Shown here one piece after another: positions 17,101 through 64,000 of a DNA stretch of 64,000 bases. The DNA comes from Amphiscolops sp. MND2022. Taxonomy: Eukaryota. The notes beneath the pieces were generated by a model. The model worked only from the letters and a program-made list of their open reading frames with translations, was not told the DNA's origin and searched no databases. The stretch covers positions 47,990,001-48,054,000 of the forward strand of contig OZ076409.1 in the NCBI GenBank assembly GCA_964187785.1, given 5' to 3'. Each line of letters starts with the position of its first letter. The stretch's first letter is position 1. The position numbers and the translations under genes were made by a program.

Positions 17101-17773
17101 TAGAGACTTGTCCAAATTCAAAATTAGTAACGATTACGTCAAAGCAAATGCTGAAAATGAGAGAAAATTAGAGATAGACCCAAAGATCGAAATAGAGCAC
17201 GAAGATTTCAGCGATGAGGTGGACTCCACAATTCTAATCCGAGAAAGGGTACGTGGGACAATGTTAGAAGGAGCGTGCAAGCGTGTGAAAGGCAAAGTAG
17301 TAGGTCAGTCAGAACAAACAATCACAGTGCTGACAAGAGGGAACAAAAGCGAGACTGTTTACTCAGAGAGAGACGTGGCGAAAACCACAAAATTGCCAAG
17401 TACAAGCAAGATGCCAAAAAGAAGAAAAGGGGCAATAGAGACAATAGTAAAACAAAACAAAAATAGAAAAGGAAAAAGAAACCAAGACGAAAGAGATATA
17501 GGCAAATGGTCCACAAGCAGTCCCTTTCCTGATGAAGGCAAAAAGATTGTAAATAGCCCTGTAAATAATGAAGAAACTGAAGAAGGGGAAGAAATGGAAA
17601 CACAAAGCCAAATTGCCGAAGAAACTGAAAGAAACGAGACTGAACCGCAACTGGAAATACAAAAGGAAGAAGCTCAGAATGAAGAAGAAAGGATTGACGA
17701 ACTACCAAAGATTCCTGTAAAGGGAACCGTGAAATGGAAAAAACGAAGCTCAGAACGAGTTTTTGTGGAGTGA
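14101..17773 (+). pseudogene. gag-pol pseudogene (zinc knuckle, protease, RT, RNase H; integrase core missing)
   Basis: CWRC...H...C and CNYCRRKGHLERVC knuckles (~14815-14930), protease MIDTGS (~15125), RT LDSRALN/IDMTYAYGQ/FVDD, RNase H ICDAS...ELEILAV; stops at ~14356, 14809, 15263, 16001, 16237, 16783 plus frameshifts. Confidence 0.92.
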
Positions 17774-20271: not shown

Positions 20272-20741
20272 GGTGCCGTTGTAAGTTCGCCATATTTAAG
20301 TTCGCCACGTATAAGTTAGCCCGTAAAACTTAGCCACGTTTAAGTTAGCCACCATATAAGATCGCCACGTTTATTTTCGCCACATTTCAGCTAATGAAAG
20401 AATTCCATATCAGCGATTATTTTCATTTGGTTATATTTAGTGGCGATTAGCATACTTGTTGTATGGCTCGGTCGCTTCGCTCCCTTCGCCAAGTAGCAAC
20501 ATTGAGGCATGGCCATATGGCACGCCGCTCCGCTTCGCTTCGCTCCTGCATTTAGGGCACTAGGGGTATGTGAACATATCTGACTACGTTATCGTAATTT
20601 TGAATGCTCAAATTTGATTGGCCGAAAATGTGGCGAACTTGTATGTGGCGAACATATATGGTGGCTAAATTAAATATGGCTAAGATTTACGGGCTAACTT
20701 ATATGTGGCGAACTTAAAAGTGGTGAACTCAAACGGACACG
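20272..20741. mobile_element. Mutator/MULE-like MITE (470 bp) with 9-bp TSD and central hairpin cassette
   Basis: TSD GGTAAAACA at 20263-20271 and 20742-20750; TIR ggtgccgttgtaagttcgcca vs cgtgtccgtttgagttcacca; inverted subterminal TAAGTT(C/A)GCC arrays; cassette copy B on the minus strand at 20458-20563. Confidence 0.88.
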
Positions 20742-22049
20742 GGTAAAACAATGTAATACTCAATGGGAGTTCCCTTTGACTGGCCTCTTTGAGTACCTTT
20801 CAATTCTCAGACGTAAAAAAGGACCCTGCAGTGTAAGCTCTGTGGACTGGAGGAAAAAAAGAGAAAGAAATAGTTACTGTGATAGTCGGGCACGTTTCCT
20901 TTTAAAACGTTGCTATTTTCTGCCAAATCACTCTTGTTTGGTGGAATGAGCAAAAAAATCGTCCAGCAAATTTAGGTCTCTGGTGAATAAAGCTTTAGAA
21001 TTGCTTTTTGGCACAGCTTTCAGGGACCTCATCTTTTTATTTCTGAAACCGAAAACCACTTTGTTTTGAAAAAACTCTTGCGCTAAACAATAAAACAAGA
21101 CGTCCGCTAAAAAGCGGGAGATTTTTCGCCGCAAACTTTTCTACTACCACATGATTTTGAGACTCAAAAGTAATAATTGCACTATGAAAAAGCAAAGAAG
21201 TTTGAAAGAATGAATTTTTGACACTTTTTGATTCATCTTGTCCTTTTTTAACGGAAACACGTGATTTAAGAATAGTGTAAGTACCGAAGTGAATTATTTT
21301 TGAACTAAGTGAATATTAGTATTGAACCGACCGAAGTTATATGTTTATATACACCAAAAGTCACTAAAATTTTTATAAATCGGAAAACTTGATACTTTCG
21401 AACCATTTGGGCCGTTTTGTCGAGCTTTCCAAGCTAGAAGCTGCACATATCTCCTCCGAATTGCCTTAAGGATACAAAATCTGATCGATGGTCAAGGTTT
21501 TTAACCAATTTTACAAAAATTAAAAATTTCACAAACAAATGAATGAAAACGTCAAACACTTTTGATCTTTAGGGGTTTGCTGCGTGTTTTTTCTACCTGA
21601 AAAAAACACAACCTTTTTCCTTAAAAACTTACTGCAGAGATAGTAATTTATTTAGGAGCATAGTGACTTTTGAATATTTAACAAGAAAAGCAGGTCGAGA
21701 AAAAAATCTTACGTTTTCGAGAAGTTTGTAATTTTTCCTTCTGGAACGCAATTTCGTTCAAAATCCCAATTGGGAAGCACATGTTTCGAAACTGGGCCCA
21801 AGAGTTCTCTAAAAATTGAAAACGTTCAGGAATTTTGCAAAATTGGGAGTATGTTGTCGATTAATGATGAACTTCGTAACTTTTGACACATTTGTTCTCA
21901 ATTCCGAGGAACTCTACCCCATTATCTGTCTCGAGTTGTGTTTTGAATAGCCTATTGTTTTAACTTCCAAATCGATGGAAGTTCAATTTTTCAACGAAAA
22001 ACTCGCGAACTGAACAAGTTTGGCTCTAATCAGTCAAAAATCGACTATT

Positions 22050-23650: not shown

Positions 23651-23775
23651 ATATACACTATGGTAGCAAAAAGCGACGTACAGCTGAAAATTAAATCTTA
23701 TTCAGTTTGTGAAGAACTGTTTTCATTCTCAACCGGAAGTGAAATCAATCACTCTTGAATTAAACATTGTTGAAA

Positions 23776-25278
23776 ATGGTCAAACCTTTGGATTCATACG
23801 TTGTTTGCAAAATCGTTACACTTCGCGAAATGGGTTTATCATACAAAGAAATTAAAGAAAAGTTGGGTCTTAAATCTTGATCGACAGCTCAAACAGCTTA
23901 TCAGCGTTTTTTGAGAACGAACTCTTATGTGGCGAAAAAACCTCCAGGCCGGCCAGAAAAGCTCAGCGAAAAAGAGCAAAGACTAATAGTTCGAAGAGTG
24001 GAAAAAGACCCAAAAACAACATTAGAACGAGTAAGAGTACTGCAAAACTCTTTTTCAACGTCAAAGACAGTTTCTAAATGCACTATTCGAAGAATCCTGA
24101 AGAAGTACGGAATTGTTTCTAGAAAAGCCGCAAAAAAGTTTAACTTGAACAAAAAACAAAGGCTGGTCAGAAAACGCTGGTGCTCGAGAATGTTGAAAAA
24201 GCCCCTTGGTTTTTATCCAGCGACAATATTCACCGAAAATGGGAAAAAGTTATGGAATTTTTTGAAAGAAAAAACATTTGAGAAAAATCTCAAAGTGCCG
24301 AAAAAACCAAAACGAAATAAAAAATTTTATCAAATCAATCACTTTGGTAGAGTGAACTAATAGCGCTTTTGATGGTGCTGTCATAGATACAAGACGAGAA
24401 CATCTAAAGTCGGCGCTAAACCTAAGGCTCAAAAAGCGCAAAGTGTAGAAACTCTGCTCAGAACTTTTATGAAAAGACAAAAAACCTCAAAACACCAAAA
24501 TATCATAAAGTTTGAAAGGGGACCCTTTAGTCTCGTTCGGTTTCGTATGTTACGTTAAAAAAGAGAGAATGAGAGGGTGGACCTTCTGCACTACCTTAGA
24601 TGCATATTCGCTGGCCAGATTTGGGTGTTATTGTAAGCTTGAAGAAGGTTGTTTTTGTTTCACTCGAACTTTTGTATTTTTGTTCTGAAATTCGGCTGGA
24701 TGGAAACTAGGCTTCTGGGAAAACGTCGTATTCTCAGACGAAACCCGTGTGCGCTTGAATAGTGATGGCGTTGTCCGGGTGTTCAGGAAAACTGGTCGTC
24801 GCTTTTGCCCGAAAAACACACAGGGAATACGCACAGACAAAAGATCTATGATGTTTTGGGGGGCCATCAGATCAGATGGTAGGAAAATGCTAATTAAATG
24901 TCCCGCAACACTCAACAGTTACGGATATTTGGAGATTTTAAAGCAATACGATCGACATTTGAATATACCGGATTTGGTGTTCCAGCAAGACAACGCCCCA
25001 GTACACAAAAGTGAAGTTGTTCGCAATTTTCTGGCCCAAGAGCAATGGGAGGTGCTGGATTGGCCAGCTTACAGTCCTGACCTGAATCTATTGAAAATAT
25101 TTGGGCCATTTTTAAAAAAAGCTTGCGAGGTCAGATTGTTACCTGGGAGAATTTAGAAGAAAAGGTTATGGAAGTGTGGAACAACATAAACCCTGATGTT
25201 GTTCGCAACTTGTACTCATCGTATGAGAATCGTCTGGTGAAGGTAATCAAAAACCATGGTAGTTTGACGGGATATTGA
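23776..25278 (+). pseudogene. Tc1 DD34E transposase pseudogene
   Basis: MVKPLD...GRPEKLS HTH region, VVFSDET, FQQDNAPVH, WPAYSPDLN(P)IENIW with 34 residues between the second D and E after restoring a 1-nt deletion; stop at ~23878; insertion at ~24206-24709. Confidence 0.93.
24206..24709. mobile_element. ~500-bp insertion in the Tc1 transposase (short TIRs, contains a HINE fragment)
   Basis: Splits KKPL|GFW; ends ttggtttttatccagcga / tcggctggatggaaacta are imperfect inverted repeats; internal acaagacg...aagtcggcgct...taaggctcaaaaagcgc. Confidence 0.7.
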
Positions 25279-26404
25279 TTTATTATTTGTTTCAACAGTT
25301 GTTTCAAATTTTACTGTTCTGAGTTTTTTTTAAAAAAATGTTGGTGTACGTAGCTTTTTGATACCATAGTGTATAATTGGAACATGGCAAATCTTGTAAA
25401 AAACGCGGCTGATATAAATATTTTCCTTTCCGTATGAAGCATGGGCGGAAATTGACAATGAAAAAAAAATAAAAACTTCAATAAATACCCAACCGGTTGT
25501 CTTAATTGACACTTGTTTGAGAATTTGACTCTTGGATGACTGCTTCGACACTTCCAGCATTCATTAGATAACACTGACTTTTTACTTCTTTTTTGCAAAA
25601 GAGCAGAACTTCTCACATAGGAAAAATGTTAGAAATGTTTAGACAGGCCCTTATGAAAGAAGGCCAGCGAAGATTGAAAAAAATGAACTTTTTGAGATGA
25701 TGATTTTCTTTTTTTTTTCGAAAAATCTCAAATCTGAACGAAAGTTCAATTTTGTGTTATTAACTTGAACTCAAGAAAATTTCGGTTCCTTTCGCACTGC
25801 AAATGTTTGTTGGTGTTTTTGTGGAGTCAACTGTTTCTCAGTTATACTGAAACGATAATTCGGAAGAGAAGTTTTTACTGCCGGATCTTATACAGATGCA
25901 ATGTTTTCTCAAGCTTCCATTCCTTCTTGAGGGGACCTTCACTCCAAGAGCTTGTTGGTAGCCCAACCAGATTCTACTATTCAGATTTCACAAAACTATT
26001 CCAACATTCTTCGTTTCGTTATAACAATCTTTGATATTTCTTTTGTTGGTTTTTATAATTTTGAAATTTTTGATTTAGATTTCTGTATTTTGTTCTGCAT
26101 TCTTAAATTCTCCTGCTCAGCGCTTCACAAGTTGTTTTAGCTTTTGAGAGAAAATGTCTATTTCATATGGAAAACGAGGTCTGAGAGTCGGCAAACGGTG
26201 GCTCTGAAATGTTTGAAAACGTTAAGCGATGCAACTTCTGATAAGCGATGCAACAATTGCGTTTAATGAAACCTATGAAATTGTTTCGTCGTTTCCAACA
26301 TAAATCGGCACACAGAAATTGGACACTTATTTGGTAGTAATTATAACTCTAATGAGTGAAACTTTTGGCGTGGTATCAGTCATTAATCTGAAACGCATTT
26401 GGTA

Positions 26405-31391: not shown

Positions 31392-31690
31392 AAACGTTAT
31401 ATCTGGTATACGTTATATCCGGAGTTCGTTATATCCGGTTTGCACTAAATCCTGGGTTGTGTCCTTATATCCGGTATACATTAGTTTCGGAATTCGTTAT
31501 ATCCGGTTTGCGTTATGTCCGGTATGGGTTGTGTTGTTATATCCGGTATACGTAATATCGGGTATTCGTTATGTCCGGTTTGTGGTAAATTCGGTGTGGA
31601 TTGTTACTGTCGATGGGGACTCCTTAGACCTTTTTACAGCTTCGAAAAATTCTCCAGGAAACGTTATAATATCCGGTATACGTTACAGCT
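31392..31690. repeat. GTTATATCCGG tandem array (MITE arm)
   Basis: About ten cgttat(a/g)tccgg units. Confidence 0.8.
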
Positions 31691-40860: not shown

Positions 40861-43800
40861 GTTAGATGTATAGAAGTCATAGCAAGTTTCGAAGCTAAAA
40901 ACAAGTTTCTCAATAAGTATTAACAACTTCTCCAGTTAGAACAAGTCACGCATTTTTGTATTTCAACGGGAGATAATCATTAACTTCTGATGTTTATTTT
41001 GTAAATCACTTTTGTGTTAACTTCTCTGAATACAGTTGAATTGATACTACCAACTCTTCATCTCACTCAGCCTCAAAAGTCAAGAGGTTATGCGGCCTTA
41101 TCCAATCATCTGAAACTAAGGTTGCTGTCAGCTTTCGATCAGAAGTCACTTGCTAAAGATAGACTGAAAAATGAAGCGAATGATGGCAAGGAGAAGCGAG
41201 AAGTGAGAAGTCAAGCAGAACGAAACCATCTTTTTTTCCAATGAACCACTACGCCATGCAGTCTGAAGTCAACTTTCAGAGATGAGAAGCGAGTGAATTT
41301 TTTAAAAAATCAGACTCAAATTTTCTTGATGCTTTTGTAAATTTTCTTGCTGTTTTTCCTAGGATGAGTAGAGTTGAGTTTGAAGTTGAGTGAGAGTACA
41401 CATAGGTTAAACAATGTTTTGAAAAATTTTCTCGGAAGATTCCAAAAACACCAGTGAAATATATCTGGGCTTGATAAAAAATCTTGGAGACAATTTTTCT
41501 GACAAACTTTTCGATAGCAAGTCTTTGTTTAAGTTGATTTCCAACGCGCACGTCGCTATGTACTGCATAGCATGACGGGAAGTAAGAAATTTTCTGAGAT
41601 TAGTTTTTGTTTCAAAACGCCTCTCTTTCGAGGTTTTTGTAAGTAAGTTGTTTTTGCGATCCAGAGATACGTTGTTTTATGTAAATCGTTCAAAGATACA
41701 TTCTCACGAGGTCAAGGAGCACAAGTTCAGGTTCACAAGGCTTAGCGTTTTGAGTGTCTTCGTTAAGTTACACAACTCAGACATAAAATGACAAACCACC
41801 GTACTGTAGAGTCTAACTTAGAAACGTTGTTGTTTTCAAGAAAAGACGAGGACTTAAAACATTTTGCTGAACGTTTTGATGCTCAGCTTCATTTTTTAAA
41901 ATCGAGGACAGTCCTTCTTGATCGAGAGAGTTTGCCTGAGGAAACAGATGCTAATGTCGCTGGTGAGCAAAACAAGTTGAAAGAAAAACGGCTCGCAGTT
42001 TGGTGTGAACTGGTGCAATCTCTAGATAGAAAATCATTGAGTTTGGTAAAAACAGCGAATCTTAACGCCACTCTGGCTTGGAAATTATTTCAACACTGTT
42101 TCAAAAGTCGTGAACGTCCTCGTATCCTTCAACTTTTGAATAAGTTAACGAACCTTAGAATGAACTCATAAGAAAGTACGCGTGATTATTTGATGAGAGC
42201 TGAAGAACTTCAACTTAGACTAACCGATGTTGGAGAGAATGTTAGTGATCAAATGCTATCTTCGGTAGTCCTAAAGGGTTTGCCGAACAGTTTTGCAAGT
42301 TTCGTAACTGTCTTCAAGTTTTCGCATGAAGCTGAAACATTAGCTGATCTAAAACGAGATCTTTTGAATTTCGATAGTGATAGTTGCCGAAGTCAAACCA
42401 ACCAAGGAAGAAGTTCACATTTCACTAAAGACGTGAAATGCTTCAATTGTGGTAAAATTGGCCACCGACAAAATGAATTGCAGAGCAAAATTGTCTGTCA
42501 TAGTGTGTTACAAATGTGGTGAAAAGACCTCAAGGCGAATGAGTGCCTTAAAAAGAAAAATAGGTCGAAACAGCAGCGCCGCGTGAGGCGGCTCAAAACA
42601 AAACTTTTTAACGAAGCGAAATGACAGTAATCTAACATCTGAAAAACAAGGTATTTCTTTTCATACTAGCCAAGCACTTTCGACGGGTAAGAACATAGAA
42701 CTTCTGATAGACAGTGGCTGCACGTGTCACATGATAAAGGACGCTGAATTGTTCAGCGACTTAGACGTTTCGAAAATGGGTAAAGTTCAATGTGCGAACG
42801 GAACAGAATCCAGTTTTCAGGAGAGGATCCGTTCATTTTTTGGCTAAAGACAATCAAGTTCAAGATCAAATCTTGGAACGTGAAGAATCGTTGTACGTTC
42901 CCCAAAACACAAAAAACCCAAATTCGATAAAGAAACTGAGCGAACAAAATGCGAGCGTTCATGCTGATGTAAACCCTCGCATAGTTCAGGATGATAGATG
43001 TTTTCCATTAAAGTGCGAAAATAACTTGTTTTATTTGCAAGTTGACTGTTTGCATGAGCAAAACAATGTCGCGACTGCAAATCTTTAACTATGGCATGAA
43101 AGAATGGCTCACAATAACACCATTGATGTTCGAAATTTGGCAAAGGCTTTCTTCCATAGTAGATAAAAGAGACAAACCTTGCGATGTGTGTAACACAGAA
43201 AAAGCCGAGCGGTTACCGATAAGCCGTCAAGTAGCAACTAGAGCTAAAAAACCTTTAGACATAGTTCACGTGGATATATCGCCTGTGAACACGACGTCGA
43301 TAGATGACTTCAAGTACGCTCTAGGATTCGTTGATAGCTTCAGCAGACTCGGTGCTGTTTATCTACTAAGAAGAGCCGAAGTCGGAACGAAGCTTTTGAG
43401 GTTCAAAGATGAGCTTGGAAAAAGTCGCAAGGTAGTCACTGATAATGCTAAAGCGTTCGACTTTGGAAATATCGCGGACATTTGCTAACAGCAAGGAATT
43501 CATTAGGAATTTACTTGTGAATACACTGCCGAACAAAACGGTAAAAAAGAACAGTTTTGGGGAACCATGGGGGTGATGGCTAGGTATCTGTTGAAAACAG
43601 CAGGCTTGCCTGAATGTTTTTGATCGTTTGCATACCAAGCAGCTTTCCATATAAAAACCGATGCCTTCAATCTGCTCATGGCACAACACCGTCTGAAAAA
43701 TTATTTGACAAGACACCAGATGTGTCTTTTTCTCGAGTTTTTGGGTGTCAAGCATTCTTGTACTTAGAGAAACCAAAACGAAACAAGTTTGATGTAGAGC

Positions 43801-46085
43801 TTTGGAAGGTTTTTTATTCGACTATAGCAACAATTCTAAGTCATATTTGATCGGATTTTTAATAATAAATTCAACAAGACTAGTTTTCCAGGTAAAACAC
43901 ACTTCGCAAACACTGAAAGTGACAATGATTTTTTCTCCGAACTCAACGAAAACGGGAGTGGAATAGAGATGCAAAACACAGAATCAGTCGGAGATACAAA
44001 CTTTATCAGCGATGTGATTGAGTTGAAAAACGGTGATTTAGGCGGTAATCCAGAAACGTTGGTCACCGAAAGGTCAAACGAAAAAATAACACATATTCCT
44101 TCGCATAGTTTGACTGTGCATACTACGACTAGATACGGACGAAAAGTTAAGTCGCCGAACAGATTTACCCCAGGTACGAGCAGCAACTTGTCTTACAATT
44201 TAGGTTCGTCTGAGTTCGATGAAATTGAAACGCTCGCTTACCATTGAAATTATGTTGATCATGAGTTACCGAAGCGCTTGAAGAAGCGCTCCCTTTGCCA
44301 GAATGATATCGTGTGATGAAAGCGAAATACGATTCTTTACAAAGAAATGAAGTGTGGGAGCCTGCTGAATTGCCCGAAAGAAAAAACTTTGTACCAGGTA
44401 AAGAGCATTTTGCATTTAAGCGAAAAATAAATAGAAAACATTAAGCACAAAGCAAGATACGTAGCTAGAGGATTCAAACAAAGACAAGATGTTGACTACG
44501 ATCAAACATATAGTCCGACTGTGAAAATGGTAACACTTCGAGTTTTGCTGAGTTTGGCAGTTCAGAAAGAAATGAAGTTGAAACAGTTAGACATAAAAAC
44601 CGCTTACTTGAACGCAGGTATAGAGGAAGAATTTTTTGTAGATCAGCCACCAGGTCCCGTTGAGAAAAATGCCAACGGCAAAAGCTATGTTTGTAGATTG
44701 AAAAATCACTTTATGGATTGAAGCAATCCGGTCACAGTTGGTTCAATACACTTAGAGATTTCTGCTTAGCTCACAGTTCAAGCCGAGCATAAGTGATCCC
44801 TAATGGTTCTTGAGGGAACGAAACGGTCATAAGGACTTTGTAGCAAGTTGGGTAGATGATTTAGTCTACTGTAGTGACAATAGTAACTATTACGAAACGT
44901 TTGAGAAAACACTGAGTAAAAAGTTTTTTTTCAATGAAGTAGATGACTTGAACTGGTTCTTGGGAATGCAAATTAGACATGAAAAAGGCAGACTAGAAAA
45001 ATCCCAAGAAAATACATCAAAAATTTCCTTGAAACCTTGGAAAGAAGGATGCCAAAGGACTTTTCACGCCTGTTGCTGAAAAGCAACAAATCAACAGGTC
45101 AGACTCTCCGGACGAAGGCAGCCAAGAACAAAAGGAGATGAAAAAGTGTAATTTTCGTGGGTTGATTGGTTGCTTGAATTACTTAGCGAACACGACGACA
45201 CCTGATATAACTTTCGCTGTGAGAGCCTTAAGTCGTTACGTTCAAAATCCAGGCCGAAAACATTGGTAACTAGGAAAACACATCTTGAGGTATCTAAAGG
45301 CAACAAAGTGTAGGAAACTGACGTATAGAAAATCCGAAAAACTTGAGCTCACAGGTTTCAAAGATGCTGATTGGGTAGGAAAGTTAGATGATAAAACGTC
45401 CATCAGTGGCCTTCGCTTCTTTCTAAACCCAGAATCAGGAGCTGTTAGTTGGAATTCTAAGTTACAGACAACGGTAGAGACTTCAACAGCTGAGCTGCTG
45501 AGACGGAAGCAATGTCGTTTATTTGCAGCTTCTCAATAACTTGAGTTTCTACGAGGACTAGCAAATGAGATAGGCATAGATACGGAAAAGCCTATTAAGA
45601 TACATGTGGACAATCAGGCTTGTGTCACGACACCCAAAAATGCAGTGAACTTCCAGAAAGTGAAGGATTTTGCAATCCAGTTGAGCTTCATACAACAAAA
45701 GTAGGATTGCGACGTTTGGATGTTGAGTTATGTCCAACCAGTGAAATGATTGCTGATTTGCTAACTAAACCGTTGGCAAATTCAAATTCAAGTTTAAAAT
45801 GTTCAGCAAAAGACTTTCCGGAGAATATAACTTGCAATCGAGCTCCGAAAAGGGGAAGTTTTCAGATATATAGAAGTCATAGCATGTTTCGAAGCCAGAA
45901 ACAACTTTCTCAATATGTAAGAACAACTTCTCCAGTTAGAACAAATCACGCTTTTTAGAATTTCAGCGGGAGATAATCATTAACTTCTGATGTTCATTTT
46001 GTAAATCACTTTTGGGTTAACTTCTCTGAATACAGTTGAATTGATACTACCAACTCATCGTCTCACTCAGCCTCAAAAGTCAAGA
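40861..46085 (+). mobile_element. Full-length decayed Ty1/Copia LTR retrotransposon
   Basis: Two ~225-bp LTRs (40861-41085, 45861-46085; about 19 differences by eye); PBS GGTTATGCGGCC similar to the copia GGTTATGGGCCC; PPT aaaaggggaag before the 3' LTR; TSD not evident. Confidence 0.95.
41788..45790 (+). pseudogene. Copia gag-pol pseudogene (gag, PR, IN, RT, RH order)
   Basis: CFNCGKIGH knuckle, LIDSGCTCHM protease, CDVC...KPLDIVHVDI integrase, KARYVARGF/QLDIKTAYLNA/WVDDL RT, DADW and IADLLTKPL RNase H; many stops and frameshifts. Confidence 0.93.
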
Positions 46086-46946
46086 GTTTTATCATTGAAA
46101 TTGCCCGAAACCACATTTTTTCGCCATACAAATTGCGGATGACCCTCTATCACAGAGTGTTACAAAACTTTAATTTAGAGTGTTACAAAACTGAGTGAAT
46201 GAAGAAATTAAATTTTAAATTTTTTGTATTTACGCACTCTTTTCTTCCAATAAAAAAAGCGGCCAGCAAAAAATTCAGAAGCATTTCGGTCTGTAAGAGT
46301 AGTTAGTAGATGTGATGAATAGTTAAAGTGCGGAAGAAAAAAATTTTTTAAGCTTTGTGGAAGTTAACTGTATTAGTTCGGGCCTAAAACTTTAGAAAAA
46401 AAATTATGTCGTCAGAAAATGAATGGGATTTTGAGTTTAGTGGGGGCACTGACTTTAGCGTTCTAATCTTGTTTACTTTTCGTCTATGTAAAAAACTTTG
46501 CATCAAAAATCTACCATTAAGTGTTCTAGCGATACTGCAGGCGCCAAGATTGTCGCAATGAATACGAACCATAACAAGTGGTCGAATACTGACGAATCGG
46601 CAATCTCTAAGTTTTTCAAAGCCTGAAGTAAAGCTATGAGGTGACAAATCGCGAACTGCATAAGTCGGCACCCAGCCCAAGCCTCATAAACATAAAACGA
46701 GTTTCAAAACTTTAGGAACTGTTTTTGGAATTTTTCAAAATCTCGGTGTCGAAAAAGAAGACGGGAGGCCTAATATGTCTTTTTTTTCAACGGCAAACAT
46801 GAAAAACCCGGCTTGCCTCATTGCAAAGCGAGTCTCGCACACCATAATAAGTAAAAATAAAACAAAACTTAGAAAAGCAAAACAACTTATTCGATGATCA
46901 CTCCCGCAGAATTGGGGATATTAAGTTAAAGAGGTTTTTAAGAGGT

Positions 46947-49447: not shown

Positions 49448-50491
49448 CCCGGGTTGACCCTCTTACTGCATCTTGGCTGTCTTGGCAAGATCTTGCCAAA
49501 TTCTTACTACATCTTGGCAACCATGGATCCCATGGCAAGATTTTTATTAAGATCTTACTAAGATAATACTTATTCCAAGATCGTATCTTATCACGATGGA
49601 CAAAATTTTAAGATTATAAAAAAACACTATACCTTCGGTACAAGCAGCCGAGACTCAATCTAAAGGCTTATTTCACCCAACTACGACTATTTCTACTCGT
49701 TTTCATAATCAAAATGCTTAAACCTGCTGAAAAAATTTTGCATGCAAAAATGCGTGAAAAATTACGATAACGTAGTCTGGTTTCCAAAATTTTGACGAGA
49801 ATCCTAATAACTGCTCACCTGTTTAGGACTGAGAAATGCGAATGTACCAAAGGAAAGGTCATTTCAAGGGCTTTCCAAAACTTGTAATTTATCACTACTG
49901 TCGATTCCAGAGGCGGCGAAATATGCTCTCAAACGTCCAGACCCACTATCGGAAAGTTAGAAAGGAAAGACCTTAAAATCCTGAACTTTTTGTGAAAGTC
50001 ATATTTCCAGATAGCCTGTTTCTTTGAGCCTGTTTCAGCAGCCTTATTACTGCTAGAAACGGCGGTCATTGCTCTAATTTGGGTAATGATTCAGCCCAAG
50101 GCTTTTCTGACGCCGTTGTTGGCGACAGTTTTGCAATTGAAAGAACAATATCGATATCGAAATGGTTGTAAAAATCATTCAGAAATTTTGTTTTGAATGA
50201 TGTCTAGATTATTTTTCCATAACTCCTAATTTAATGGTTATTTGATTTTACTTTTTCTCGATATCGAGCAGTTCGTAGCAATTTTTTTCTTGCCACATTC
50301 GGCTTCTTAGTTAGATTTTTCTTGCCATATTGGGCTTCTTAGTAAGATTTTTCTTGGAAACATGGCTCTCTTGATAAGATCTTACCATGGCATCTTGCAA
50401 TTCTTGGCAATATCTTGTCACGATCTTAGCTAAGATTGTTCCAAGATCTTGCCAAGATCTTACTAAGATATCCATGGAGGGTCGACCCGGG
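49448..50491. mobile_element. MITE, CCC...GGG termini, TA TSD
   Basis: ta|cccgggttgaccctc ... gagggtcgacccggg|ta; subterminal AAGATCTT(G/A) repeats in both arms. Confidence 0.88.
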
Positions 50492-51549: not shown

Positions 51550-54500
51550 GCTTATTGAGCGCAGCTGAAAATGGAAAAAGACAATACCATAAACTCCTTT
51601 ATATTGAAGGGAAGGCCAGAGAATTTCATAACTTGGAAAACAAGATTCAGTGCCTGTTTACTTACTAAAAACATACAAATAAACCAAGATGATGTCACTG
51701 AAGAAAGTAGAGCTGCAAACCATGTGATAGTCGTTCGTGCGTTGGTCATGCAACTAGACGACTTTCTACTGCAAGCTGTCATTTCTTGTGGAGAAAACGA
51801 TGGTGTCAAAGTATGGGCACATTTGTATCAGAAATATGGGCAAACAAATGTGTCGCGGATTCTTTCGATATGGAAGCCGTTCATCGACTCAATAGTTGAA
51901 CCAGTTCAAACCGTTTCTTGTTATCTAATTAGATTACATTTTTGATTTTCAAACTAGAAACCGCTAAAGAAGTTATTACTGGAAACTTTAAAATTGCAAC
52001 AGTTTTTAAAACCCTACGTGAAGAATTCGAGTTCTATTATGCAGCAATTCAATTACAAAAATTGATCATAACGGGTTGAAGAACAAATTAATTGAAAAAT
52101 GCTTATGCCTACCGACCAGAAATTTATTCACAGAAGAGAAACTGAACAGGGTGGTTGACAAATTTCAGTTTGACAAACCCAAGTAAGACCAACAGGTGTT
52201 CAAATGTGCTAATTTTGGAAAAATCATAAATCGCAAATTTGTTTTGAACCTGAGGCAAGTTGCACAAACCCAACGAGAAAACTTCAACAGCTTCTGGGCT
52301 CGCGAAAAACGATTAAAACCTAGTTTTTAGTCGCCGCATTTTAGTAGAAAATGTGCCCGACTCTTACAGTGTGTAGTTTTTTTTTTAGACACGAAAGGTC
52401 CACTTTTTTGTTCAGTTCATTTGTTCAACAACTTGGGGGAGGTTCAAAACGCGGAGGTTCAAAACGCGGAGGTTCAAAACACTCGAAATCTAAGAACCTT
52501 GCTTTCAGTTCACACTGAAGGGTCCACTTTTTTGTTCATTTGTTCAACTTTTTAGCCGAGATAATTTAGTTACGATATAACGTTTCAAAGTTCGGATATG
52601 ACGTTTTGAAGGTTCGGATATAACCTTTTCTTTTCTCGTATAGCAGTATCGACGTTTCCCCAAAATTCATAACTTGTTGAACCTTGGATATGGCGCCGAA
52701 TTGGGCCGGTCCCGGGTTGTTGGCTCTCATTACAACTGTGAGAACAAACTATTGAATGGCAGTGGCTGTACTTATCATATTTTAACTGATCAAAGTTTTT
52801 GTTAAAGAAATCAACCAGCCTTCTATTGTTGTATTTGTTTGCAATGCAGATCTGTCAAAACAAGAAACTCAAGGCATTGGTTCAGCGAAACTAGATGTAA
52901 TAGATGCCAATGGTACACATGTTTAAATAATTCTTGAGCAAACTCTTCATGTTCCAGTGAGGAAAGTCAATATTTTATCAGAGGTAAATTTGTTTGAGAA
53001 GAACAATTCGCTCCACTTTGATTTGAAAGAAAGCAATTTCATTCATGAAAACAAAAAAGAAAGATTTGTGTTGTTTTCTGGTGACGATTTGTATCACCTC
53101 ATTTTAGCTCAATCTGAATCGAAAGCTTTTCACAATGATATGTTGTGGCAACATGCCTCAAATGACTGTTAGGAAAGATGAAACACAACATTTCCAACTA
53201 TGATCTTGAAACATTCTCTCGCAGTGAGAACAGATAGCATTGTCAACTCTGTGCTTTTATTAAAAGAACAATTGAGAAGGTTCCAAAGACATTACGCAAT
53301 ATGTCGAAAAAAGTTCGATATACTTCCTTTCAATATCTGTGGAGGTTTTCCAAAGTCTAAAAATCAACGTTTTATGGTGTCTTTCAGAGATGATGATTGA
53401 AAATTGTCCAGAATATATTTCATGAGAAAAAAACAGAATTCCCTGAAAAATTCAAAAACATCGTGCTTACGTTGGCAAAAAATGTCAAATCTCTTCGTTC
53501 AGATAATGGAACTGTCAAGCATTTTGTGAAATTGGCATCAATGAAGGCATTCAAAAGGAATTCAGTTCACCTCAAAGTCAATTCCAAAAGGGAATCGCGG
53601 AACAATATTTGCAAACAATTTGTGACATGACAAAATGTTTTCTCTCACAATCAAATCTCAAAAAAAACTTTCCGGCTTCGAGCTGCTGACATTGCTTGCT
53701 ATATTCGAATTGGTTTTGTAACAAAAACAACAGCTCAGACAAACTACATTATCAACTGTTCTTCGAAAAAATCCTCCAGTGAAACATTAAAGGCGTTTCC
53801 GTTTCGTGGCTTGTAACAGAACGATGTCTAATCCATGTAAACCTGATTCAAAAAGATTACAAAATTGATGATTTGTGAATTTGAAAAAGAGAATAAAAGT
53901 TATTTTCAGTATTCAATGAGAACGCGGGTCATCTGTAGCTGTAATGTGAAACTTGACGAACAACAGTATAATATTCGATGTCGAAGGATTCCAGTCCACC
54001 ATTCACTTTTCAGCCTGAAAAATCAGATTACTGGAATACTAACAGTCCTTAATCAATTTGGTACTATTAAACTCGGCATTTTACCTCTACAACAAACTTG
54101 TATGAATCAACACATAACGAAAAAACTAACTCGCTTCGGATACCCTCTCTCACCGATAATGAAACGTTGGTCAATCAAGTAACAACATCTTTTGAAAAAG
54201 GCCGCGTAAAGACAACAACGTTTAGGCAATCCACGTCAGGAGACAAGAAGAAAGCCAGACGCCCGGTAAGCATCGGGATCTATTCCGCCCTCTTCGCATT
54301 CACCGACTGAGTCGAAGCTACTTTGGGTCTAAAGATTGAGATCTAAAAGTTAGTGATTCTAGATCTTATTCCCTTTAGATCTTATTTTCGTCCCGAAATT
54401 TTAGATCTTATTCGCTTTAGATCTTTTCCTTTTTCTGACTTAAGATATTATTCCCCCTCTAAGCTAAGTGAGTGAGAACTAAGTGAGTGAGAGAGTGTAG

Positions 54501-55170
54501 GTAGATAAGAGTGAATGAAGGTAAGAGTAGGTTTTTGGCAGAATTTGGAACAAAACGCATCACAGAACATGATTTTCTTCAACCATTGAAAACGTTGGGT
54601 CGGAAAATAATAACAGATTCCACGTGTTCTTAACAGTGTCATCTACAGGAAAAAGATACTTAGACCTATTCGGATGCTATGAAATCAATGAATTGTGAAT
54701 GTTGGAAACAAGCGATAACTTCAGAATTGGGTACACTTAGAAAACTTGATGTTTATGATCTTGTGGATAAATCAAGAGAATTGCCTTTAAAGAAAGCAAA
54801 GTGTTCTTTGTTACAAAAAACTCCAGAAGGGTCAATTTCTCAACACAAAGCCAGTTATGCTTCAAAAGGGTTCTCACAAGTGGTCAAAACTGCACCGAAA
54901 CTTTCGTACACACTGTGTCACTTTCGAAAATACGTGTATTACTGGCATTAGCGTCATAAACGTCAATGAAAAGTCGTCAAAAAGATGTCTTTTCTCAATT
55001 CTCCAATAAAGGATGATATCTATTTGGAACAAACTCCCAGGTCCATTGAAGAAGGGGAAAGACGACGAAGTCTGGAAATTGGAAATTTTGTGGTATGATC
55101 TTGAACAAGCAAGTCGCGCATGACATAGAAATTTAGCGAACATTTTAACAAAACAACTCAAGTTCACGAA
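51550..55170 (+). mobile_element. Older, heavily decayed Copia element
   Basis: Gag-like FITWKTRFSACL (51571-51945), protease-like xSGCTYHI (~52755), integrase LRSDNG (~53492), RT WKQAITSELGTL...KASYASKGFSQ and QASRA; LTRs not resolved. Confidence 0.8.
52324..52721 (+). mobile_element. HINE-like element inserted in the second Copia
   Basis: ttttagtcgccgcatttt...aaaatgtgcccgact stem-loop start, ggcgccgaatt...gttgtt end, internal GGAGGTTCAAAACGC x3. Confidence 0.6.
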
Positions 55171-57055
55171 ATTTTACATATCTTCGTTTTTTTGTCCGAC
55201 GATTTGGTAAAGCAAACCAAAACCTTTAATCTTGGGTGGAAATCACGTTCTTTCCTTGTTGACCATTTTTAACATTCCAATCTACAAAGTTTGTCGGAAA
55301 TTTTAAAAAAATGCCTAAAATTTTTGAAAACAAGGAAATTTTGGAGTTTTTGTCATCTTCGGTGTCAATTTGAGACATCTTCATTTTGAAAAATGCAATA
55401 AAGTCTTTCGAAAAGCCTACTGAACAACACATTCTTTCCGTTTTGACCATTTTCAACGTTCCAATCCACAAGTTCTGTAAAAAATTTGGAAAAAAACTTG
55501 CAAATAATCTTTGAACATGTCGAAGGATTCCAGTCCACCATTCACTTTTCAGCCTGAAAAATCAGATTACTGGAATACTAACAGTCCTTAATCAATTTGG
55601 TACTATTAAACTCGGCATTTTACCTCTACAACAAACTTGTATGAATCAACACATAACGAAAAAACTAACTCGCTTCGGATACCCTCTCTCACCGATAATG
55701 AAACGTTGGTCAATCAAGTAACAACATCTTTTGAAAAAGGCCGCGTAAAGACAACAACGTTTAGGCAATCCACGTCAGGAGACAAGAAGAAAGCCAGACG
55801 CCCGGTAAGCATCGGGATCTATTCCGCCCTCTTCGCATTCACCGACTGAGTCGAAGCTACTTTGGGTCTAAAGATTGAGATCTAAAAGTTAGTGATTCTA
55901 GATCTTATTCCCTTTAGATCTTATTTTCGTCCCGAAATTTTAGATCTTATTCGCTTTAGATCTTTTCCTTTTTCTGACTTAAGATATTATTCCCCCTCTA
56001 AGCTAAGTGAGTGAGAACTAAGTGAGTGAGAGAGTGTAGGTAGATAAGAGTGAATGAAGGTAAGAGTAGGTTTTTGGCAGAATTTGGAACAAAACGCATC
56101 ACAGAACATGATTTTCTTCAACCATTGAAAACGTTGGGTCGGAAAATAATAACAGATTCCACGTGTTCTTAACAGTGTCATCTACAGGAAAAAGATACTT
56201 AGACCTATTCGGATGCTATGAAATCAATGAATTGTGAATGTTGGAAACAAGCGATAACTTCAGAATTGGGTACACTTAGAAAACTTGATGTTTATGATCT
56301 TGTGGATAAATCAAGAGAATTGCCTTTAAAGAAAGCAAAGTGTTCTTTGTTACAAAAAACTCCAGAAGGGTCAATTTCTCAACACAAAGCCAGTTATGCT
56401 TCAAAAGGGTTCTCACAAGTGGTCAAAACTGCACCGAAACTTTCGTACACACTGTGTCACTTTCGAAAATACGTGTATTACTGGCATTAGCGTCATAAAC
56501 GTCAATGAAAAGTCGTCAAAAAGATGTCTTTTCTCAATTCTCCAATAAAGGATGATATCTATTTGGAACAAACTCCCAGGTCCATTGAAGAAGGGGAAAG
56601 ACGACGAAGTCTGGAAATTGGAAATTTTGTGGTATGATCTTGAACAAGCAAGTCGCGCATGACATAGAAATTTAGCGAACATTTTAACAAAACAACTCAA
56701 GTTCACGAAATTTTACATATCTTCGTTTTTTTGTCCGACGATTTGGTAAAGCAAACCAAAACCTTTAATCTTGGGTGGAAATCACGTTCTTTCCTTGTTG
56801 ACCATTTTTAACATTCCAATCTACAAAGTTTGTCGGAAATTTTAAAAAAATGCCTAAAATTTTTGAAAACAAGGAAATTTTGGAGTTTTTGTCATCTTCG
56901 GTGTCAATTTGAGACATCTTCATTTTGAAAAATGCAATAAAGTCTTTCGAAAAGCCTACTGAACAACACATTCTTTCCGTTTTGACCATTTTCAACGTTC
57001 CAATCCACAAGTTCTGTAAAAAATTTGGAAAAAAACTTGCAAATAATCTTTGAAC
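53978..57055. repeat. Apparently perfect 1539-bp tandem duplication (53978-55516 / 55517-57055)
   Basis: Identical ORFs offset by 1539 bp (54098/55637, 54679/56218, etc.); 2-bp AT microhomology at the junction. Confidence 0.95.
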
Positions 57056-57850
57056 ATTGGAAAATTTTGATATTTTTGTCAGTTTCGGCGTCAATCTGAA
57101 ACATTTCAATTCAGAACATTGCATTTGTCTCCTCGTAAGAGTTCACTGGAAAACCAATCTTTTTCCTTGTTGGCGCTTTAAAACTTTCCAATTCACGAAG
57201 TCTGTCAACAATTTGACAAAAAATGCGTAAATTGAAATTTTGCGGGTTTTGTTATTTTCGATGTCAATTTGAGATTTTTTTCATTTGGAAAACAGCAATC
57301 ATCTCTTCGGAAATGCCTACTGGACAACCAATCAGTGCCATATTGTGCGTTTTCAACATTTTAATCTACGAAGTCTTTCGAAATTTGATAAAAATTGCAT
57401 AAAAACAATAAAAATCGGGATTTTTTTGGTTTTTTGTCATTTTCTGTTACTTTGAAACATTTTTCATCCAAATAACTGCAATAATCTTTTCAAAGGAGCC
57501 TATTGGACAACGAATTTGTGACTTGTTGAACGTTTTAAACATTCTTATCCACGATATCCATCGAAAAGTTGATAAAAATTGCATTAAAACGTCAACAATT
57601 GAAAATTTTTGTAAATTTTCTCGTTTTGTGGTCATTTCTGGGTCATTCTAGGGTCCCTGGGGTCAACTAAAAAGTCCAGAAATCTCCACAATTACATATA
57701 GCACGAAGCTAAATTTATGTCAGTTGAATTCCATGGGTAACACCCTTAAAGTTAAATTTAAATTTGGTGCTAGGCAAGTTTTGTTAAACAACCGTTTGAT
57801 TTAAATATGTTTTTTCCTTTCCCATATATGAAATATGGGCGGAAAATAAA
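56700..57850. repeat. ~180-190 bp diverged tandem array plus conserved family terminus
   Basis: tttgtca..ttcggtgtcaatttgagacat units at ~56888, 57074, 57249, 57433; ends gttgaattccatgggt...tttcccatatatgaaatatgggcggaaa. Confidence 0.7.
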
Positions 57851-59140
57851 AAATTATTGTCCATCGGACAGAAGCTGCTGGATGGCAGTCTTCAGTTCAG
57901 GAAGCACTTAAATTACGTTGTGGAGAAAAAACACAACTTCTCATAGCAAATTTCGCAGAAATGATTGTCGAAGTTTAATTTATAAAATAATTTGCTCAAG
58001 ATCAATGACAACAGAGTGTCTTCCAATTGGATTATGTTCTTTCTCAGGACTAGAGTCAGCTCTAGTTTCGAAACAACTTCACTCACCTAAACTGGTGAAC
58101 ATTGCTTGTAACCAAGGATTGCATGTTAAAATTAGTAAATCTGTGAAACGTGTGAGGTTTGTCATGCACACGAATGGACAGAAGCAGGTGGTAATACTTT
58201 TATACGAAAAACTAAACAGCCAAATGAATTGTCTTTGTATGATGAATTCTTGATTGATAGCAACTTTTTAGGTTGCCATCTGATGGAGGTTATTTGAGAA
58301 GAAAGCAAAATGTGACATTGAGCTGTCATTGATGTTTTGAAAACTAACAAGTCGCGACTAAATGACGTCTGTCTACTTGGAACCTGTCTCTACATATGAT
58401 CTTTTCACCAAGGAAAATAGACGTTGTCGCGTAAAGTTTAAGAAAATGTTGGCGTAAAAGAAGGTTTTTCTGTTTAGGTACAAGCTATGTTTCATGCTCT
58501 CATTTATCATTTTTCATTTGAGATTCGAAGTCATGTAAAAACCTCAGCCTTCTAGCTCTGATAGCTAGTGTCTAACATGTAACCTTCAAAAAGACAAATG
58601 AAGAAACTTCAAGTTTCAAAAAGTCTTTAAGATGAGCAGGCACAGTTTGGCATGGCCAAAACCAATGCAATGGAAATGTGTCGGTAGCGATTTAGCTTGC
58701 AGATACGCAGTGATGGAGATATCACAAGATACTGAAACTGTTATCAATACTCTTCATATTTTTGAAATTGTTAGTATTAGGAATGAAGTTCAACGAGTTC
58801 AAACAAACGAAGACAAAATAAGAATGAAATTGTGGACGCAAAGAATGGCAGATAAAGCGAGCAGAGAAAAGTCAGAACAAGGATAAGAAATGAATGAGAA
58901 GCTGGAGAAAATGATTCAAGAAGCGAAAAGCAGCAAAATAACTCAGTCATTTCTAAATTTGAAGTTTTATGAGCAAAAAATATTGAAAAATATCACAAAT
59001 AGGGACATGCATTGTTACAAATAAAAAAGACGGTGAAATAAGCGTGTCCAATACAGACAACCAAGAAAACAGAATGCAGGATGTTCTTTTCAGGTCCTCA
59101 AAATTAGGTGAGCTGAGATTGCCCATGCGTCATTGAATAG

Positions 59141-59640
59141 GGGCACGGTAATAAGTTCGAACCCAAAAGTTCGAATTTTAATTTCGAATGGACTAAGTTC
59201 GAATTTTCCAAAAACCGGAACAAGTTCGAATCACTGTGTTCGAATTTTGAACTAAGTATGAAACGTGCCACTGATATTACCGCATTTCATCTAGTGCCCC
59301 GCGGCCCCTTGGGGCCGCTTATGTTCCCATCTTGCTAAGCGAGGTCGAACAGGAGCAAAGACCTAGCGGGAACGGAGATCGCGAAGCGATCGTAGTGGGA
59401 GCTGGTCTTTGCGACGGTGAGGGCGAGCGTGCATACACCGGGTATGCCCCACATTTCAGTTTTTAGATTCCTTTAGATCCTAGGCGGTGGAGCTCTCAGG
59501 ATCTTTTGTGAAGGATGTCCAGTTTACACCGGATATGCCCGATAAGAAAATTCGAACTTGGTGTCTCGAAACTATTCCATTCAAACTTATTGCACTAGTT
59601 CAAATTCGAACTTAGTAAATCGAACTTATTGCCCGAAGCC
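59141..59640. mobile_element. Mutator/MULE-like MITE (500 bp) with 9-bp TSD and central hairpin cassette
   Basis: TSD ATTGAATAG at 59132-59140 and 59641-59649; TIR gggcacggtaataagttcga vs ggcttcgggcaataagttcga; AAGTTCGAA subterminal repeats; cassette copy C at 59291-59437. Confidence 0.9.
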
Positions 59641-61217
59641 ATTGAATAGTGGAGAGTTTGATCTAGTTGTCACTGTAATTGTAATTAGGGTCTCACAGGG
59701 TCACAGGCTCCAACATAACATAATTTCCGTGAAAATCTGAAATTGCCGAGATTTTTTCTGGAGAATTTTCCAAGCGTTTCAAGTGCCCAAGAATCTTGGG
59801 ACAAAATCACTGGGACATTGATTTAAAATTCTCATAAAACGATGTGTATGAACATGGTATGCCACTCTTGTTAAGTTGGAAGTTTTTCGATCGAATGTGA
59901 CAAAAAAAACCCCGCCTAAAATTGTTGTGAAAAAGCATTCTAAGGCTGAAAAAAAGTTGATAAAACTTTTTTGTGGGGATAGAAACAGATATAAAAGAAT
60001 TTAAAAAACGTTTAGTCATAAAGTCAAAAACATTCAACTAATCTCTCAGTCTTAGTCTGACATTAGGGGCGAATTCTTTGAATCAAAAAATCATTTTCTA
60101 CCTTCATTTTACGGGGTGGACGCCGAAGAAGCAGTTCTGCTTTTCTAAGTCAATACTCTTTTATCTTATCATATTTGCAGCCATAAAGCTGAGCAATACC
60201 TTTTTTGTCAACTACCACATCACTAAACAAGGAATCAGGGACTTTCCTAATGCCCAACAATTGTGAGTTGAGAGAGATTCGAACCTGGTTGTTGGCGCCT
60301 CAAATGAGATTTAAGAATTTTTGCGAAAAATTCACAAACAGATTAGTCTCAAACAAAGTGCTGAAAAATTGTGAATATTTGAAATTTGACCATAGTTTTT
60401 TGCCTAGCCTCTTTTTTGACCATATCAAATGGTTAGGTTATTAAAAAATAGACTCGGAGGAACGTTTACCGAAAAACACCGCTGGTTGATCTGATTTTGA
60501 ACCCTTTTATGGAACTTGTGCTTTTTCTGTGATTATTTCTATTTTTTGGGTAAATATATTTCTCTATGTACACCTTATATGGTTTACGTGGGTGTTCAGA
60601 GGACCCACCAGTACCATTTGCGAACGTCCCTGATTATTTAACAGCAAATAACACGTGTAAATGTATGCCTTAATGCCCATAAAAACTAATTTCATATATA
60701 CTTTCACATAATTTGGTGTATAACAACAACCCAGATGAATATTTTGTTTCAATAAATTCTATATATCAAGGCGCTTGTATGATGATGGTAAATTTAACCA
60801 CAAACATCCAACATGATGTATTTCCTGTATGCTAAAGTAACCAGAGTTAACTCCTACAAAAGGGACCCAACCAGGTAGAGGACCAAATCGGTCGACTTTG
60901 CTACTCAAGTATTGAAGAAAGTGACAGCTTGGAAATTTCTTGTACAATTAATTCAGTTAACTCTGGCTATTGAAGAGCTTTTGAGAGTTGTACAAGTGAT
61001 ATTGTATTGTTTCGAAATTCCAACGTCAATTTATTATATTGCGTATGGTTGCGATATTTTTGCTTGGGAAAGTTATCGTGGAGGCAAGTATTTGGACTTA
61101 TCGTTTGATTTAGCTGCTCAACCACGCTACCCCTCATCGAGACAGCTAAGTTGGTTCCTATTGTCAAGCTTTAGAACTTCAAAGTTACTTTATGTTTGTT
61201 AAACAGAATAAGTGTAA

Positions 61218-63035: not shown

Positions 63036-63671
63036 TCAATTTTTTAACAACCCTTTTAATTTTCCGCCCATATTCCATATGGGAATGTCATGAACGTTAC
63101 CGATGGACGGTCTACCTAATCGGTATCCATCATGTTGTTCATTTCTACAGTCAGCTTTAGCGTTTGGAATTCGCTTTTCCTCGGCATTTGCTTCCGCTCT
63201 CTCAACTGGGACTTCCCATCCCCTTCTGGTCTCTCGGCCCGATCCGGCCATTATGACATTCTGTATCTGAGGCAATACTTGACTGCTGATAGCCTCATTA
63301 ATGGCCCTTTGGATCTGCGTCCCAACATTATTCATCATTTCATCCATCTCACGGGATATCCTAGAGTTCAATTCGCTAGACAACCTATTTATCTCAGCTA
63401 GTGAGTTTGCTTCAACTGAGTTTTGGCCAAAATCGGCACTTGTCCTAGGTTCATCATTTCTGCAATTAGAAAATAGGCTTTCGCCCTCGTTGTCCAAGTT
63501 ATTACTTATGACACTTTCTCTCCTCCCAACGGAGTTATTGTCTAAACTCCTTTCTCTTTCAGTTCCATTGTAACGATCGCCTCCTAACATTATGTCTAGA
63601 TTTTCGATATCAGAAAGGATCTCTAGTCCTCTGGACTTTCTAGTCTTCTTTTGTTTTCTTGTAGTAGGCAT
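63036..63671 (-). CDS. LTR-encoded ORF (MPTTRKQKK family), reading 16 codons into the flank
   Basis: 211-aa intact ORF homologous to 6467-7045; homology ends at the LTR edge. Confidence 0.7.
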   Translation of the reverse strand: MPTTRKQKKTRKSRGLEILSDIENLDIMLGGDRYNGTERERSLDNNSVGRRESVISNNLDNEGESLFSNCRNDEPRTSADFGQNSVEANSLAEINRLSSELNSRISREMDEMMNNVGTQIQRAINEAISSQVLPQIQNVIMAGSGRETRRGWEVPVERAEANAEEKRIPNAKADCRNEQHDGYRLGRPSIGNVHDIPIWNMGGKLKGLLKN

Positions 63672-64000
63672 AAGGAAACTTCGAGTATAAAATTAAATTA
63701 GATTATATCTCGAAAATAACAGTGAAACCGTTTGTACTAATATGATAGTCTTTTTCAGAAGAGAGCAAATAAGGAAGTGTCTCCTCTCTCAAAGGCACGG
63801 GTATTTATACCCCCGAAAGAGTGACACTCTCATTCCTTACATTCTTTGACTAAGACAATACCATATGACTGCATTTTTGATGGTCACAGGATGAACGCTA
63901 TCCATTTCAAATATTATACATCAAAGGGACAATCATTCAACCGTTAGCACCGTTTACATATTTGGCAAAATATTTTCATTGAACAGGTATTTGTTGATGT
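63086..64000 (-). mobile_element. Second ORF-bearing LTR (runs off the window), in the last intron of the tetraspan gene
   Basis: Minus-strand end ...gttcatgACA at 63086; block tgtcactct..gggg..ata.ccc.tgc..tgagagag shared with ~7165-7213; TATAAATA at ~63802-63809. Confidence 0.7.

Follow-up and report, generated by a model that had tools for sequence, protein, structure and literature searches.

Four short units in a 64-kb stretch of eukaryotic, repeat-rich DNA (the window, i.e., the whole 64,000 nucleotides analyzed; GC ~0.36) are best read as TIR-less, non-autonomous elements that would be moved as single-stranded DNA (ssDNA) by an HUH-type enzyme, with copies nested in related MITEs of the Mutator/foldback type. 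We give this reading a probability of roughly 45%. The units probably represent a real small-element system that has not been described before; it is known from six copies, i.e., four units in the window (A to D) and two low-depth contigs of the public run X1, and its movement enzyme is a postulated one. Our literature search, which covered article listings outside Repbase, found no description of these elements.

Three Islands with Common Motifs Form Two Families

The motif CTAGTGCCC (CTAG motif) occurs exactly three times in the window, at 11114 on the plus strand, at 20555–20563 on the minus strand, and at 59291 on the plus strand. Each occurrence is followed downstream by CATACA (11235–11240 in island A, 20460–20465 in island B, and 59432–59437 in island C), and one GCGAAGC per copy lies 74–83 nt from the CTAG motif. 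The composite pattern CTAGTGCCC...CATACA gave these three matches in the window, and none of 300 dinucleotide shuffles contained any. The three GC-rich islands with these starts and ends, proposed by an earlier sequence-only reading, were thus borne out (GC 0.56–0.61); its coordinates are right for C and two bases too long at the ends of A and B. The units of the window and their landmarks are:

11098–11253, plus strand: unit A (family AB), a decayed copy in which two GCGAAGC motifs are mutated, with a hairpin at 11203–11215 and no detectable MITE around it
20447–20579, minus strand: unit B (family AB), bounded by direct-repeat copies at 20579–20571 and 20455–20447, with four GNA mini-hairpins
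59274–59450, plus strand: unit C, structured and TIR-less, bounded by imperfect 9-bp direct-repeat copies at 59274–59282 and 59442–59450
59291–59299, plus strand: CTAGTGCCC motif of C, common to A, B, and C, internal, 11–17 bp inside the left repeat
59431–59447, plus strand: right-end hairpin CATAC-N5-GTATG of C, common to B; the direct repeat starts with its 3' arm
59447–59541, plus strand: unit D, with a 91-bp period and an AT-richer interior; it starts like the left end of C and ends like its right end (15/16 bp)

By alignment, the islands fall into two families, AB and C, and not into three with interiors of their own. Over a 52-bp block that starts 11 bp left of CTAG, A and B share 92% identity, and two of their four differences are CpG transitions. 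None of 1000 shuffles reached the score of the A/B interior alignment (16 of 2000 for its middle part); the outer flanks of A and B do not align, with scores reached by 945, 1319, and 1523 of 2000 shuffles. The interior of C resembles neither A nor B (scores reached by 964 and 876 of 1000 shuffles, respectively), so the earlier statement that the interiors differ holds for C only.

For the ends that B and C have in common, any motif being allowed, both end scores were reached in 8 of ~20000 random window pairs and in 1 of 20000 shuffles, and the summed scores by 55 random window pairs and 3 shuffles. The test weakens to roughly 0.005–0.3 when the ~110 oriented pairs of 11 GC islands are taken into account, and MAFFT leaves the CTAG motifs unaligned. 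After correction for post-hoc choice, the shared ends of B and C appear modestly above chance, which is suggestive.

The Units Appear to End in Imperfect Direct Repeats

CTAG and CATACA had been taken as the boundaries of the islands, which did not hold up: shared sequence extends beyond both. Left of CTAG it covers at least 11 bp in A/B and 6–8 bp in C (both X1 contigs), and right of CATACA it covers 9 bp in B and C. As the conserved sequence continues 6–8 bp to the left in both X1 contigs, CTAG is internal. Judged from the copies at hand, the true ends are further out and consist of an imperfect ~9-bp direct repeat starting with RTATG and a CATAC-N5-GTATG hairpin. The hairpin, which none of 20000 shuffles of C carried, is degenerate in A. 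The nine bases from GTATG recur imperfectly 16–17 bp left of CTAG, with 7/9 identities in A, 6/9 in B, and 5/9 in C; this register is the best of 16 in A, B, and C alike, but was chosen after looking. Identity of the terminal repeats is 7/9 in D and again 7/9 in X1 record 2. B, D, and X1 record 2 have RTATG at either end; it is degenerate at the left end of C and in A, which has ATGT instead of RTATG at both ends and fits poorly. No perfect inverted repeat of at least 8 bp was found near the unit ends of A, B, and C.

It is unlikely that these repeats are eroded TSDs, since they are too imperfect around copies with 99% identity; they look instead like an element end matched to a look-alike target. 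A 10-bp repeat around C was considered as a host TSD and rejected, because copies in different surroundings also have its last 5–7 bases. Unit D follows C directly, head-to-tail, with the same ends and a different interior, and folds no better than its shuffles (75/200 fold equally well). The end signals that A/B and C share, D probably included, are likely to reflect one mobilizing machinery.

In a separate comparison, positions 49758–49777 gave an exact 20-bp match to the DNA immediately left of B, with a 6-bp hairpin that includes a G.T pair. As an empty site of B this stretch was discarded, because the right flank of B does not carry on there.

Unit C Occurs in Other Flanks

When X1 contigs were aligned to positions 58600–60200, four matched, two of them only briefly and weakly at other positions. 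Record 2 (1816 bp) aligns with 59283–59440 at 2 differences (156/158) and is unlike the window to the left and right of this stretch, while record 3 (416 bp) matches 59285–59458 with 14 differences (160/174) before it continues into unlike sequence. Contig depth is 2.1–2.6, so that single differences may be errors. The contigs are without the MITE3 arms, unit D, and nearly all flanks, a gap that we do not count as evidence. Since two X1 contigs carry C and then diverge from the window, C is, on the aligned sequences, a unit of its own that occurs in other flanks. The left flank of record 2 carries the left 10-mer of B at 9/10 and in nearly the same register, a likeness equaled by 1320 of 200000 random pairs. 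Same-species and other-species readings both fit the X1 copies.

These copies also bear on a different explanation, in which AB and C are unrelated repeat fragments that fill MITEs in the style of Pack-MULEs, their common ends being a post-hoc coincidence. The unlike interior of C, the CTAG motifs left unaligned by MAFFT, and the weakening of the B/C end test by the multiple-choice correction suit this explanation, as do the heterogeneous interiors reported for non-autonomous MULEs (PMC5225508). It is nevertheless improbable in view of ends that are common in both order and orientation, of the like GCGAAGC spacing and repeat register, and of the independent match of record 2 to the left end of B.

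B and C Lie in the Centers of Two Foldback MITEs

As had been proposed, foldback elements with perfect 9-bp TSDs surround B and C, which are located close to the centers of elements of 470 and 500 bp, respectively:

20272–20741, no strand assigned: host MITE2, Mutator/foldback-type, with 115-bp arms (83%), 15-bp AAGTTCGCCA repeats, and a 9-bp TSD at 20263–20271 and 20742–20750
59140–59639, no strand assigned: host MITE3, Mutator/foldback-type, with imperfect TIRs containing AAGTTCGAA repeats and a 9-bp TSD at 59131–59139 and 59640–59648

The arm score of MITE3 was reached by none of 1000 shuffles, and MITE2 and MITE3 are the two strongest inverted-repeat centers of 1264 tested. Both have the features of their class, i.e., a perfect 9-bp TSD (class 8–10 bp) and long TIRs with short subterminal tandem repeats. 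The two hosts had been called unrelated. However, AAGTTCG subterminal repeats occur in both, and their left termini are similar; 60 of 2000 shuffles reached their arm-to-arm score. From these similarities, they do not seem clearly unrelated. With Mutator/type-2 foldback elements (Muta1 type; PMC5225508), the hosts have in common the 9-bp TSD, long tandem-repeat arms (15 bp or shorter), and a heterogeneous interior; they differ from the elements portrayed there in that their interiors are shared structured modules instead of gene fragments, and no transposase is linked to them. The possibility that A, too, lies inside a decayed MITE was rejected, as the inverted-repeat score of its flanks is unremarkable (433 of 1000 shuffles reach it).

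Two of three copies are central in related MITEs, which would be rare under random insertion and argues against the ssDNA-element reading. In the main alternative, the module is a cis-acting ssDNA signal (priming or protection) that forms the core of a Mutator/foldback MITE clade, where selection would keep it and recombination or gap repair would swap it between families. This account is in line with the strongest two of the 1264 centers both carrying the module near their middle, with the repeats and termini common to both MITEs, and with the recurrence of the B hairpin in origin-type non-coding regions. Nonetheless, A is without arms despite its 92% core identity to B, the similarity of X1 record 2 ends sharply on both sides of a 99%-identical core, and a passive core needs neither terminal direct repeats nor the C+D tandem. 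Moreover, the third foldback element of the window (1491–2399) is without the module. We consider a cis-acting core somewhat unlikely. For the ssDNA-element reading, the 92% likeness of the A/B core, found while the flanks fail to align, and the presence of A without MITE arms argue that the units are independent of the MITEs.

Mini-Hairpins Are Confined to One Strand

The three hairpins named by the sequence-only reading were found where it had placed them. The predicted structures of C and the main hairpin of B are:

59301–59318, plus strand: GC-rich palindrome of C, stem 7–8 bp
59322–59351, plus strand: second stem-loop of C, which has a loop of 3 nt and, on the plus strand only, a T.G pair
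59355–59412, plus strand: long stem of C, capped by a GAA mini-hairpin at 59377–59391
20470–20484, minus strand: B hairpin GG-GA-GCGAAGC-GA-CC, in which tandem G.A pairs would form; the 17-mer used in searches is 20470–20486

Folding of C gave z-values of −2.5 to −3.4 as DNA in one analysis and −1.6 to −3.15 in a second one, the latter with the stronger values on the sense strand; for the sense strand, z-values ranged from −2.2 to −3.4. A and B fold no better than shuffles (71–199 of 200 fold equally well) under models that ignore sheared G.A pairs, so the description of the islands as rich in hairpins survives, by the shuffle comparison, only for C. Sheared G.A pairs are stable. Across A, B, and C, seven GNA mini-hairpins lie on the strand that runs from CTAG to CATAC and none on the other, which amounts to ~5 independent sites and p ~0.03. 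The stem of GCGAAGC is extended by Watson–Crick pairs in C, by T.G in A, and by tandem G.A in B. As a DNA oligomer, d(GCGAAGC) is described as an unusually stable and nuclease-resistant mini-hairpin (PMC1524902).

Covariation of the C stems is not established. Among the 10 changes listed of the 14 in record 3, five fall in predicted DNA stems, where three keep pairing and two break it. The double change 59380/59388 keeps a pair in the long stem, another change there gives G.T, and two substitutions break the second stem-loop (59322–59351); in the RNA fold of C, six of the changes in record 3 break pairs. One compensatory pair has a chance of ~1 in 10 by a rough estimate. CpG decay was dismissed as its clear cause, as CpG is not depleted in the window (CpG o/e 0.91).

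A functional ssDNA/RNA module had also been suggested. Its DNA side stood, given the conserved ends, the DNA-type mini-hairpins on one strand, and a module that is not tied to one MITE; an RNA role has little support. As RNA, the sense strand of C does fold well (z −3.15, 0/200 shuffles as good), and in size and tandem layout the units resemble non-LTR retrozymes (PMC7229834). A structured RNA that was retroposed in a SINE- or retrozyme-like manner, with the direct repeats as TSDs or terminal redundancy, is still very unlikely: Rfam scans left both C and B without a match and gave a single one, with E=9, next to B; ARAGORN found no tRNA, and A-rich tails are absent. The hammerhead core CTGA.GA is missing from both strands of A, B, and C; a simple pattern found no Pol III A box, and a loose B-box pattern matched once, in the flank of A only. 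In addition, GC is 56–61%, compared with <50% in retrozymes (PMC7229834), and GNA triloops are a DNA-type motif.

Proposed Movement and Comparison with Known Systems

In the mechanism that we propose, a trans-acting HUH (Rep-type) protein would peel off the strand running from CTAG to CATAC, and the mini-hairpins would protect and mark this strand. Its two repeats would be joined into a single-stranded circle, which may then insert at a genomic site resembling RTATG-N4 by pairing with the CAT(A/T)(C/T) ends of the element. Such an insertion would rebuild the target at the right end, allowing units to chain. Within MITEs, the arms would be constrained and the loop would not, so that copies could persist in the centers; the loop may also be single-stranded once the arms fold, and the MITE might then transport the copies it holds.

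By their end features alone, the units come closest in layout to Replitrons (Replitron-N1 type; PMC10288648), which likewise have no TIRs and a right-end hairpin, and for which alignments between copies can pass beyond the repeat; their short terminal direct repeats may have a counterpart in the imperfect ones of A to D. A right-end hairpin of this type is present in B and C. According to the same source, Replitrons occur in plants, algae, and protists, have perfect 6-bp repeats, and measure ~910 bp in their non-autonomous form, whereas the units described here have imperfect ~9-mers, a length of 90–175 bp, GNA mini-hairpins, and no known Rep.

Likeness to Helitrons is partial. As in Helitron1 (PMC3627910), a GC-rich palindrome lies 10 nt from the CTAG end on the minus strand of C, and A|TC precedes CTAG on its plus strand. 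In contrast to the Helitron1 form given there, CTAG is followed by A and conserved sequence, the palindrome is absent in A/B, and the mini-hairpins lie on the other strand. The Helitron 3' end that had been read on the minus strand of C is thus not supported, as the base after CTAG is A, not T, and 6–8 more bases are conserved. A Helitron1 3' end (CTRR with an upstream hairpin) was not found in the units, where conservation passes 6–8 bp beyond CTAG. Nor was a Helitron1 5' end with TC and A/T insertion, as A|TC in C has conserved sequence to its left and A/B have CC. Elements of the Helitron2/Helentron/DINE-1/HINE group (PMC3627910, PMC4067079) have hairpins near both ends, to which those of B may correspond: its CATAC and GTATG form an inverted pair, and another hairpin and a run of T follow roughly where they would be expected. 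C is without the inverted pair, and direct repeats do not figure as a group feature in the cited passages. Asymmetric inverted repeats of 8–15 bp, as in Helitron2/Helentrons, were not found: B reaches 5 perfect bp at best (7/9), and A and C a net score of 7 with mismatches. Regarding the Helitron2-type insertion in TT, B has both hairpins and is flanked by TT at one end and by a run of T at the opposite end, and C has no TT flanks.

The direct repeats fit a tyrosine recombinase equally well, which speaks against the ssDNA-element reading. In a Crypton-like scheme, the recombinase would cut out a double-stranded circle between the direct repeats and integrate it at look-alike sites. Cryptons have terminal direct repeats of 4–6 bp, with TATGG in most CryptonS (PMC3212892), and the units resemble them in the absence of TIRs and in a similar TATG core. 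Their short direct repeats, which are probably not TSDs, may correspond to those of Cryptons; the unit ends are small palindromes, and the C+D tandem suits site-specific integration. The unit palindromes, with arms of 5–6 bp and spacers of 4–5 bp, are however shorter than the YR sites given in the same source (arms of 11–13 bp and a spacer of 6–8 bp). A double-stranded route would leave the strand bias of the mini-hairpins unexplained, and no recombinase was found, making this scheme quite improbable.

Unclassified TIR-less repeats usually prove to belong to a transposon group as its non-autonomous members, as DINE-1 did in the case of Helentrons. The units do not match the defining features of Helitron1, Helitron2, retrozymes, or SINEs. 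Their end grammar is nevertheless consistent and can serve as a probe for an autonomous partner. A partner that encodes a new recombinase or a Rep like that of Replitrons would extend those groups to a new lineage; a MITE core would point to a single-stranded step in Mutator-type transposition; and if neither holds, the module is an ordinary nested repeat. A far-reaching version of the ssDNA-element reading is rather unlikely, namely that these are undescribed minimal ssDNA elements of a eukaryote, probably an animal, with CATAC/RTATG target pairing, a rebuilt target, cassette arrays of unrelated interiors in Mutator-like MITEs, a G.A mini-hairpin of phage/plasmid type, and an HUH enzyme or recombinase new to animal transposons. 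In that version, the 99%-identical X1 copy could stem from recent horizontal spread.

The B Hairpin Recurs in Viruses and Plasmids

In viral sequences, the 17-mer of the B hairpin matched at 34 loci, which form 25 clusters; nine of these loci are on contigs of at most 5 kb. The two control 17-mers that were run gave 7 loci (1 on a small contig) and 5 loci (0 on small contigs); the latter is the 17-mer of C, with apparent chance matches in coding sequence. Over 21–23 nt, the B hairpin is identical to non-coding DNA between VP2 and VP4 of microvirus KT264833.1, and 20 of 22 plasmid matches contain exact stretches of 21–23 nt. In the two plasmids inspected, NC_020452.1 and NZ_CP102098.1, it lies upstream of repA. 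The matching site is without annotation in all three records. Plasmid and phage matches to B have E-values of 0.1–0.5, and the similarity stops at the hairpin. In these replicons, the hairpin is likely a shared or convergent ssDNA motif, reflecting convergence on a stable fold and not descent. The microvirus and plasmid sites may fall into the category of single-strand origins or initiation signals.

Exact scans found neither the AB 21–22-mers in viral, metagenome, and prokaryote contigs nor the B 23-mer in viral contigs; the same applies to the C 18-mer in viral contigs, the C 24-mer in prokaryote genomes, and the composite and junction patterns in viral contigs. Searches of plasmids and phages gave no match for C and only E=2 matches for A. 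In metagenomes, the composite pattern matched seven loci, none with BLAST similarity to the window (0/7).

Two large "viral" contigs, L030 and L049 (512 and 181 kb, respectively), share a repeat with the B hairpin, and in L049 the resemblance to the right end of B extends over 30 bp (93%). The metagenome contigs L007 and L008 share an AT-rich repeat (82%, 238 bp) with its own CTAGTGCCC and GCGAAGC, which stops right past GCGAAGC, like a transposon end, and has no BLAST similarity to the window. This repeat is presumably Kolobok-like.

Other Features of the Window

The window also contains Tc1/mariner and LTR-retroelement remains. A Tc1/mariner element at 23652–25375 has 31-bp TIRs and its HTH and DDE parts in different ORFs. 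Decayed LTR-retroelement remains with an RT-bearing region lie at 14359–17773, and a further decayed LTR-retroelement at 40864–46089 has a pair of 226-bp direct repeats (92%) around integrase-like ORFs. The third foldback element (1491–2399), which is without CTAGTGCCC, has 45-bp outer arms (91%) and ATCCATG-type repeats, and 12122–12215 is a loopless perfect palindrome of 94 bp. At 53978–57057, a tandem duplication of 1541 bp with 100% identity is either a very recent event or an assembly artefact.

An ORF of ~200 aa occurs in two copies on the minus strand (6467–7126 and 63036–63692; DNA identity 69%). Searches with it gave no Pfam family and no Atlas match, and 899 homologues of the ORF at 63039–63671 were found in ENA; it probably represents the first ORF in a mobile element that is abundant and lineage-specific. 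The ORF may resemble repeats of acoel worms, in which case the DNA would be that of an animal. Finally, a 16-bp repeat array at 31394–31685 contains TATCCGG. Unit D carries the CCGGATAT core of this array in its right end, and a stretch resembling the array adjoins unit A on the left.
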